Shown here piece after piece: positions 45,659-46,960 of a DNA stretch of 64,000 nt; within the stretch, counting starts at the first letter, position 1, and each line of letters begins with the position of its first letter. The stretch is from IMG/VR virus record IMGVR_UViG_3300043427_003402; one strand, written 5' to 3'. Source of the stretch: a virus. A program made the translations under genes and the position numbers. The notes below the pieces were generated by a model, which had not been told where the DNA came from, searched no databases, and was given only the letters and a program-made list of their open reading frames with translations.

Positions 45659-46960
45659 CTATATTGCGCTTGTCGCAACGTCTATCGCCAACCAAGGGTT
45701 TCGGATCGCTGCCTGCGCCATTCCGCCGGTGGCAGCCCCAAGTACGGTCCCTTTCAGCATCGTTTTGGCGTACTCAGGTGCGCGGTGTTCCTCCTTTGCG
45801 GAGCGGTGCTCGTATAGCGCTCCGGCTGCCGCACCCGTCGCCCCGCCGGCCGTCAAACCTTTCCAGTAACCGTTAAGAAACTGACCCTTGTTCGTTGCTT
45901 CTTTTACTGCGTGCATGTACATGTCGTAAGCGCTCTTTTCGGGCGACCCGTAGCCCGTAATCGTGTCCATACCCAAGCCAATCGCTAACCCCTTCTTGCC
46001 GCCCGCAATAAACGAATTCGGTATGCTGCCCTCATGGTCCTTATACAATTTGCTGCTGTATAAGTTGTTCATGGCGCCGGCGATGTGGTTGCTACCCGCG
46101 TTACGCCGCGACCAGTGCTTCAGCGCCAGATTAGGGCCTCCCACAACCAAGCCTCCTAACGCGCCGTGACCAGCGCCCTCGGCAAATCTCTCGCCGAAAG
46201 ACTTGCGCTTATCACCAAACGCGCCTTCCGCAACACCGCCCATCAGCGCCGAACCCGCAGTGGTCGATGCTAAGGCAGCGGCGTCTTTGCCGTAATTTGC
46301 GACGGGCGGCTTGCTTGAAACGGCCGAGCCGTGTAAACCTTCTACAGCATGGTCAATATCTTTGACTGCTTTACCGCTCTGTGCGTACTCCCGTGCGGCC
46401 GCCGAAAAGCCGCCCTTACCAGCAGACTGCGCAACTTCGCGCTCGACCATACCGCCGGCAAGGTACGAGCCGAATCTCGAGCCGAGCAGCTTGTGCTCCT
46501 TCATTGCAGGATTGAGCGCTTTAGCCTTATCCAGCTCTTTACCGACGCGGTAAATGCGGCTACCGTACTGTGCGCCGCGGCCAGCCGCCCCGCCGATAAA
46601 CCCGCCGACCGCAGCGCCGGTTAACGCGCCGGATAGACGGTTTTCGGGATTGTTTTCATAGCCTTTGTACGCGCCGATCGCTGCCCCTGGCACAGCGCCT
46701 GCCACCGTGCCCTTCCACAAACCCTGCGCAAAAGTCAGGGGGGCGGAGGCGGCGAGCTTTTGCATATTTAGGCGGGAAAGGCTTGCGTGCTTTAGCGCGG
46801 AGTCAACAACGTGCCTCGCCACCATGTGCGCAGCATAACTATCAGCGCCGCCAGCAAGGGCACCGGGCACGGCACCGAGCGCGGTGCCCTTCCAGAGGCC
46901 GTGTGTCAACATGTTGGCTTGCTTTTGTAGCATTAACTGATAAGCTTCGTAAGGTCTCAC
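45659..46960 (-). CDS. modular glycine-zipper polyprotein with repeated K-x-A / G(L/Y)WKG units
   Basis: KQA-NMLTHGLWKG, KLA-...QGLWKG, KSA/KEA-...NGYWKG, each followed by GA..GA..G zippers. Confidence 0.7.
   Translation of the reverse strand: MRPYEAYQLMLQKQANMLTHGLWKGTALGAVPGALAGGADSYAAHMVARHVVDSALKHASLSRLNMQKLAASAPLTFAQGLWKGTVAGAVPGAAIGAYKGYENNPENRLSGALTGAAVGGFIGGAAGRGAQYGSRIYRVGKELDKAKALNPAMKEHKLLGSRFGSYLAGGMVEREVAQSAGKGGFSAAAREYAQSGKAVKDIDHAVEGLHGSAVSSKPPVANYGKDAAALASTTAGSALMGGVAEGAFGDKRKSFGERFAEGAGHGALGGLVVGGPNLALKHWSRRNAGSNHIAGAMNNLYSSKLYKDHEGSIPNSFIAGGKKGLAIGLGMDTITGYGSPEKSAYDMYMHAVKEATNKGQFLNGYWKGLTAGGATGAAAGALYEHRSAKEEHRAPEYAKTMLKGTVLGAATGGMAQAAIRNPWLAIDVATSAI

Follow-up and report, generated by a model that had tools for sequence, protein, structure and literature searches.

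A 64,000-nucleotide (nt) stretch of viral DNA, IMG/VR record IMGVR_UViG_3300043427_003402 (hereafter the window, meaning this stretch at its full length), carries on its minus strand, at positions 45659–46960, an open reading frame (ORF) whose product, P0001, contains several glycine zippers along with copies of a short, tyrosine-rich N-terminal tag. The window is a tailed-phage genome, with tail fibers, immunoglobulin-like structural proteins, and a tape-measure-like protein of 1429 amino acids (aa). P0001 is 433 aa long and starts at a GTG codon with the sequence AGGA located 11 nt upstream. It is basic, with an isoelectric point of 9.7, is rich in alanine (18%) and glycine (15.5%), and contains neither a signal peptide nor a single cysteine.

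The two-helix domain Gly-zipper_Omp (PF13488) matches residues 84–129 of P0001 with a score of 27.5 bits (E = 2.9e-6), which passes the gathering cut-off of 25, and YMGG (PF13441) scores 28.0 bits, just below its cut-off of 28.9. All of the Pfam and NCBIfam matches (Gly-zipper_Omp, YMGG, YiaD, ssl2009, and SlyB) are to membrane-anchoring glycine-zipper families, and a comparison with SlyB (7ojf) gave an E of 0.09. P0001 thus shares the two-helix GxxxG hairpin of the Pfam glycine-zipper domains (PF13488, PF13441, and PF05433, Rick_17kDa_Anti; SlyB/Pcp). Unlike SlyB and Pcp, it is encoded by a phage and combines several zippers with a conserved non-zipper body, a GLWKG cap, and the N-terminal tag. 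Its N-terminus is polar and aromatic, and it has no lipobox; in view of this and of the missing signal peptide and Cys, a reading of P0001 as a lipoprotein of the SlyB/Pcp/17-kDa-antigen type was discarded.

Zipper units of P0001 and the copied cassette

A G[LY]WKG motif followed by a ladder of GxxxG spacings is located at residues 21, 80, and 364 of P0001 and at residue 20 of P0002, the product of the upstream paralogous gene, and these are its only four occurrences in the six frames of the 64-kb window. The preliminary description of this DNA had proposed that such a unit is present three times in one ORF, and the three G[LY]WKG zippers of P0001, each with a K-x-A ahead of it, bear this out. 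Local alignments of unit against unit score 56–83, compared with 21–29 ± 4–6 in composition-preserving shuffles (z of 7.8–9.4; 0 of 500 shuffles), and alignments of the units against the middle of P0001 give a z of about 1.

The arrangement of the protein is best described with reference to P0003, a homolog of 347 residues that is 47–51% identical to P0001 and is the only one found among billions of proteins. Residues 1–15 of P0001 (46916–46960; this and all following features of P0001 and P0002 are on the minus strand) form the N-terminal tag, MRPYEAY...KQA, which is a recent copy of the tag of P0002, and are followed by the zipper helix of unit 1 (residues 21–38; 46847–46900), composed of GLWKG and a GxxxG ladder and absent from P0003. 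Residues 58–79 (46724–46789) constitute a decayed former N-terminal leader, the ortholog of the genuine N-terminus of P0003; its MQK-x-A is retained and its tyrosines are gone, as expected if these residues are important only where a protein actually begins. Unit 2 (residues 80–128; 46577–46723) is a complete two-helix glycine-zipper hairpin, 70% identical to its counterpart in P0003. The body of the protein (residues 221–340; 45941–46300) contains the motifs AFGDKxKSF, LGGxxxGGxNLxLKH, and KKGLAIGLGMDT and aligns without gaps to P0003 at 59% identity. Immediately beyond it, an internal copy of the tag (residues 342–355; 45896–45937) consists of K-S-A, which is conserved in P0003 as KQA, and then YDMYMHAV-K-E-A. 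The variable unit 3 (residues 364–418; 45707–45871) comprises a GYWKG zipper followed by a charged loop, after which comes another zipper-like helix, MLKGTVLGAATGG; identity to P0003 in this C-terminal part is 25%.

Within P0001, the internal leader SAYDMYMHAVKEA can be aligned with YEAYQLMLQKQA at the N-terminus, in agreement with the earlier suggestion that the internal YDMY...KEA recreates the leader found at the start of the protein. The leaders inside the protein are genuine duplicates of an N-terminal kind of tag, and P0001 is a tandem of leader-plus-zipper cassettes, as had been proposed.

P0003 itself starts MRPSEYY...KYA...GLWKG, aligned with unit 2 of P0001, and has this one unit: unit 1 and the GYWKG unit 3 are absent or unrecognizable, whereas residues 221–340 are conserved. 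As judged from this comparison, the conserved core of the family consists of the tag, the zipper hairpin, and residues 221–340, with units 1 and 3 as variable additions. K-x-A occurs at six sites in P0001, where 5.4 are expected from composition; the motif is thus not enriched, and enrichment was dropped as an argument for cutting. Because K-x-A recurs within the units as an element of the homologous repeat, its recurrence also provides no separate evidence for cutting. P0003 has two such sites (KYA at residue 12 and KQA at 283; 3.6 expected), which align with K68-L-A and K342-S-A of P0001, and K353-E-A and K225-D-A are not conserved.

The gene for P0002 (158 aa; 46957–47433) encodes the same tag and a zipper hairpin, followed by an unrelated C-terminal helical part, and its TGA stop codon overlaps the GTG start of P0001 in the sequence GTGA. 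Residues 1–80 of P0002 align with residues 58–138 of P0001 and comprise the tag and then two zippers, the first with GLWKG, separated by a polar loop; a structural model of low confidence (predicted local distance difference test, pLDDT, 52) places helices at residues 3–43 and 48–85, connected by a turn. The first 37–38 residues of P0001 and P0002 are almost the same (86% identity over 28 aligned residues), and the first 20 nt of the two genes are identical. At the DNA level, a direct repeat of 102 nt (copy A, 46835–46936; copy B, 47311–47412) is 91% identical between its copies and includes an exact run of 71 nt (46854–46924 and 47330–47400), a sign of very recent copying or gene conversion; the first unit of P0001 duplicates the 5′ end of the P0002 gene. 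Between them, these two neighboring and translationally coupled genes hold four copies of the cassette, one of which is separated from its source by only a few mutations. The exact 71-nt repeats are situated 476 nt apart; were they to recombine, P0002 would lose its body, with P0001 left practically as it is.

An exhaustive HMMER search of 1.84 billion representative proteins retrieved nothing beyond P0001, P0002, and P0003. No further relatives were found in word-indexed searches with P0001, P0002, and a unit profile (longer proteins included), in 50,697 phage records searched by tblastn, in a megablast search with the locus as query, or in IMG/VR and JGI metagenomes scanned with the protein and with the alignments of the pair and of the unit. 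The ESM Atlas gave sub-threshold leads only, and a neighbor-based search for syntenic relatives returned only unrelated phages. Promoter and terminator scans were uninformative. On the evidence of these searches, P0001 is a single, lineage-restricted phage protein belonging to a near-orphan family that has two full-length members among billions of proteins.

A portable tyrosine-rich tag and its genomic setting

Four genes of the window, with starts at 47433 (P0002), 46960 (P0001), 45647, and 40046, begin with a leader of the form M-[RT]-P-Y-[EQ]-x-Y that is followed three to five residues on by K-x-A. P0003 carries a tag of this type as well, as do two genes of IMGVR_UViG_3300035703_000034 (G001; 106,380 bp, GC 67.5%), a phage distantly related to that of the window. 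In the window, the gene at 45465–45647 (minus strand; GTG start, GAGGG ribosome-binding site) encodes a helical protein of 60 aa with the tag MRPYELYQLYKSA (MRPYE.Y...K-S-A); this gene completes a row of three tagged genes, and its product has no family match. The gene at 39573–40046 (minus strand) encodes a Nudix hydrolase on which the tag, MTPYQAYLAFMAKAA, forms an N-terminal extension. Its occurrence on such an enzyme establishes that the tag is portable, and the tag codons differ synonymously, which indicates that the peptide, and not the RNA, is conserved and under selection.

The strict form of the tag motif is found at three of the 78 N-termini in the window, or four when the GTG start is included, against 0 of 1000 draws of internal control windows. 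K-x-A closes the tag at residues 13–15 in all five N-terminal copies, and K-Q-A occupies residues 11–13 of the G001 tag; four of the five tags have aromatic residues at both position 4 and position 7. An exact-pattern scan of IMG/VR for MRPYEAY yielded nine loci, including the G001 segment L086. On four IMG/VR contigs (L088, L089, L090, and L092), a near-identical ORF has MRPYEAYYPSPVYDMRDL... within a longer open frame and is probably unrelated to the tag.

These properties recall the internal proteins of phage T4, which carry a capsid-targeting sequence (CTS) of roughly 10 residues, MKTYQEFIAE, that is cleaved by the prohead protease (PMC8442874) and has its targeting determinants at residues 4 and 7 (PMC9026906). 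Like the CTS of IPI–III and Alt, which is removed by gp21, the tag described here is short (10–19 residues) and is located at the N-termini of otherwise unrelated proteins of one phage. The two also share an M-basic-x-Y-[QE]-x-aromatic style, with aromatic residues at positions 4 and 7 of the present tag, and a three-residue closing motif. They differ in that the cut motif is L/I-x-E in T4 and putatively K-x-A here, and in that the tag of P0001 is attached to a glycine-zipper protein, recurs internally, and is known from sequence alone. A second parallel is provided by the SPN3US head paralogs gp53 and gp54, which have identical 15-residue N-termini and bodies that are 34% identical (PMC5694885). 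Like P0001 and P0002, these are neighboring paralogs with a near-identical N-terminal propeptide and a diverged remainder; in their case, mass spectrometry has confirmed the processing, with A-x-E as the cut motif, while in P0001 and P0002 the identity extends to the DNA, where 71 nt are exact.

G001 is syntenic with positions 1–16.6 kb of the window (the tape-measure-like protein, proteins of 1524, 487, and 1404 aa, and a sigma factor) and with 30.7–32 kb. Within it, a 409-aa Ala/Gly-rich multi-zipper protein that starts MSNTAWDMYQAMMKQSA is followed by more zipper proteins, some with (L/M)PFxxxHPY modules, then by a 467-aa gene (L086:6105–7505) that matches the head maturation protease family phrog_18299 (E = 2.5e-7), and directly after this by a tagged gene of 105 aa, MRPYEAYWLHKQAS... 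(MRPYEAY...KQA). The tag gene thus abuts a head protease in G001; no such linkage was seen in the window. The G001 protease gene is preceded by three large glycine-zipper proteins, one of them tagged and one with (L/M)PFxxxHPY modules, and downstream of it lie several genes with tag-like starts in addition to the 105-aa gene. The best local match between P0001 and the 409-aa protein pairs the unit-3 internal leader with the N-terminal tag TAWDMYQAMMKQSA; the alignment overall is not significant. A hidden Markov model (HMM) search of G001 detected no relative of P0001, and because the contig ends where the P0001-syntenic region would begin, presence or absence there cannot be judged.

P0001 itself is encoded in a long run of minus-strand genes together with ClpP, two zinc-ribbon proteins, and HAD-like, MazG, SLOG, and Nudix proteins. 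The ClpP gene (48938–49564, minus strand), 2 kb upstream of P0001, scores 236 bits against Pfam and shows roughly 52% identity with ClpP genes from phage-collection records. It is of the cellular type and probably not a head protease, a role for which it had been considered and was dropped. A pair of paralogous minus-strand genes (40123–40584 and 40605–41240) encodes proteins that have in common their N-terminus, KYARELTYAEL.KEA, a single zipper (GH.AAGAGV.GA.GLG), and a C-terminal tail introduced by K-x-A, LY.QRLAQ; their middle parts are Ala/Pro-rich and unrelated to each other. The tape-measure-like protein (12355–16644, minus strand; phrog_167, E = 3e-6) has a dense GxxxG cluster at residues 975–1050, which is a second, independent glycine-zipper element of the virion.

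Possible functions of P0001 and its processing

Our preferred interpretation, which we hold tentatively and at somewhat less than even confidence, is that P0001 is one protein that has grown by accretion of cassettes, is directed to the head by its tag, trimmed at K-x-A, ejected, and then disturbs the host membrane. The protein would have expanded through duplication or fusion of a cassette composed of the Tyr-rich tag ending in K-x-A and a GLWKG glycine-zipper helix, and the internal copies of the tag would be mainly fossils of this process. By analogy with the T4 CTS, the N-terminal tag would bring P0001 into the prohead, where the head protease would remove it at K-x-A. The mature protein, basic, helical, and presumably flexible, would ride in the head and be ejected with the DNA and other packaged cargo, after which its glycine-zipper hairpins might oligomerize in the host envelope and either permeabilize it or help form a passage across the cytoplasmic membrane.

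A membrane role would be consistent with the Gly-zipper_Omp match above cut-off, with the basic isoelectric point, and with the precedent of Tde1, a type VI secretion system effector whose N-terminal glycine zipper is needed for membrane permeabilization and entry into prey (PMC10240207). Tde1 resembles P0001 in having a GxxxG ladder near its N-terminus and is likewise delivered by a contractile injection device, if the delivery of P0001 by the phage, which we infer, is correct; the two proteins are not homologous, and P0001 has no fused enzyme domain.

For packaging, the nearest comparison is Salmonella phage Arash; among cultured phages, it alone has detectable homologs of genes in the window. 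These are weak (the sigma factor, gp6, and the Nudix protein gp138c); gp138c, annotated as structural, is 36% identical to the window Nudix protein over 75 aa. Arash gp95c–gp97c are abundant in purified virions by mass spectrometry, with 1060 spectra for the 439-aa gp97c (PMC10585845). They resemble P0001 as multi-zipper proteins: encoded consecutively and rich in Ala, Lys, and Gly, they contain many zippers of the form phi-K-G-A-xx-G-A-xx-G. They differ from it in lacking the Tyr tag and in containing far more Lys. In the Arash genome (L003:4867–7243) gp95c–gp97c are annotated only as structural.

Several observations weigh against this interpretation. The phage is uncultured, and the presence of P0001 in the virion would be argued by analogy with the Arash proteins; no homology was detected between P0001 and gp97c (hhalign probability 0.4%) or, by HMM, anywhere in the Arash genome, and a profile comparison with the 409-aa zipper protein of G001 likewise detected none, so that both are analogies only. 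The Arash virion proteome comprises 116 proteins, many of them enzymes, and may therefore contain contaminants. The genes around P0001 are for auxiliary enzymes (ClpP, HAD-like, MazG, SLOG, and Nudix), with no recognized head genes adjoining. K-x-A is a putative cut site. Finally, the zipper segments are weakly hydrophobic (Kyte–Doolittle 19-residue maximum of 1.25), and the predicted structures are of low confidence, with a pLDDT of 35 for P0001 and the value of 52 given above for P0002.

The same domain matches and neighborhood could be accommodated if P0001 were not packaged at all but acted in the membrane of the infected cell, as a lysis-timing or holin-like protein, in superinfection exclusion, or as an envelope stabilizer of the SlyB/YtxH type, in which case the common N-terminus would serve expression or localization. 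All of the families matched by P0001 anchor to membranes, and its neighbors are metabolic and auxiliary genes in place of head genes. The protein nevertheless lacks a signal peptide, lipobox, and Cys and has low hydrophobicity, and no lysis genes were recognized among the adjacent genes scanned. This explanation also leaves unaccounted for the tag on a soluble Nudix enzyme and on the 60-aa helical protein, as well as the tag beside the G001 head protease, and we consider it somewhat unlikely.

Cleavage need not be confined to the N-terminus. If the head protease cut P0001 within the prohead at K13-Q-A, K68-L-A, K342-S-A, and K353-E-A, two to four independent zipper peptides would result, and multiple cuts per substrate are known for the head proteases of T4 and of giant phages (PMC5694885). 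An internal K-x-A lies at the same place in each cassette, both K-x-A sites of P0003 coincide with K68-L-A and K342-S-A, and the unit-3 leader is flanked by two K-x-A motifs and resembles a real N-terminal tag of G001; the low-confidence model predicts a flexible P0001, in which these sites would be accessible. Against this stand the composition count of K-x-A, the absence of units 1 and 3 from P0003, which shows that the number of units is not conserved, the lack of conservation of K353-E-A and K225-D-A, and the fossil-like second leader with its decayed tyrosines. The proposal further depends on two unproven premises, packaging and K-x-A as a cut site, and we regard it as unlikely. A broader version is less probable still: a head protease with a K-x-A code would cut the tandem precursor inside the capsid, the ejected hairpins would assemble a pore or conduit for the DNA and packaged transcription machinery, and new cargo proteins or pore subunits would arise through copying of the roughly 100-nt cassette to neighboring genes.

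That a bona fide ClpP is encoded 2 kb upstream on the same strand raises the thought that the tag is a degradation or adaptor signal, permitting the timed removal of toxic membrane proteins by the phage ClpP. No ClpX or ClpA partner or adaptor was seen in the window, in G001 the tag adjoins a head maturation protease instead, and the similarity to the T4 CTS is closer; we judge this explanation very improbable.

The likeness to multi-core bacteriocins noted in the preliminary description found no support, and a secreted bacteriocin or ribosomally synthesized and post-translationally modified peptide (RiPP) precursor was rejected as scarcely credible: repeated leader-like and core-like segments in one ORF, and the presence of glycine zippers in some bacteriocins and contact-dependent toxins, are all that recommend it, whereas P0001 is far too long at 433 aa, has a conserved non-repeat body and a variable number of units, and belongs to a long, late-type operon of a tailed phage in which Pfam and PHROGs scans of 17 neighbor genes (39.5–52 kb) detected no C39/ABC exporter, RiPP or other processing enzyme, or immunity gene.

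Implications for head cargo and membrane passage

Glycine-zipper domains and capsid-targeting tags are each already known; what appears to be new is their combination, the internal copies of the tag, and the copying of a cassette caught nearly in the act. The locus captures a recruitment step almost as it occurs, with a near-identical cassette of 100 nt on adjacent genes and an older, decayed copy behind it, and thereby bears on how new proteins are recruited into the phage head. By linking a T4-like targeting tag to glycine-zipper membrane modules, it also bears on how, in large myoviruses whose injected proteins include an RNA polymerase of their own, DNA and cargo cross the inner membrane. 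Should K-x-A trimming and packaging both be confirmed, the tag would offer a compact means of loading foreign proteins into phages of this group, and the zipper proteins would be candidates for the component that breaches the membrane.

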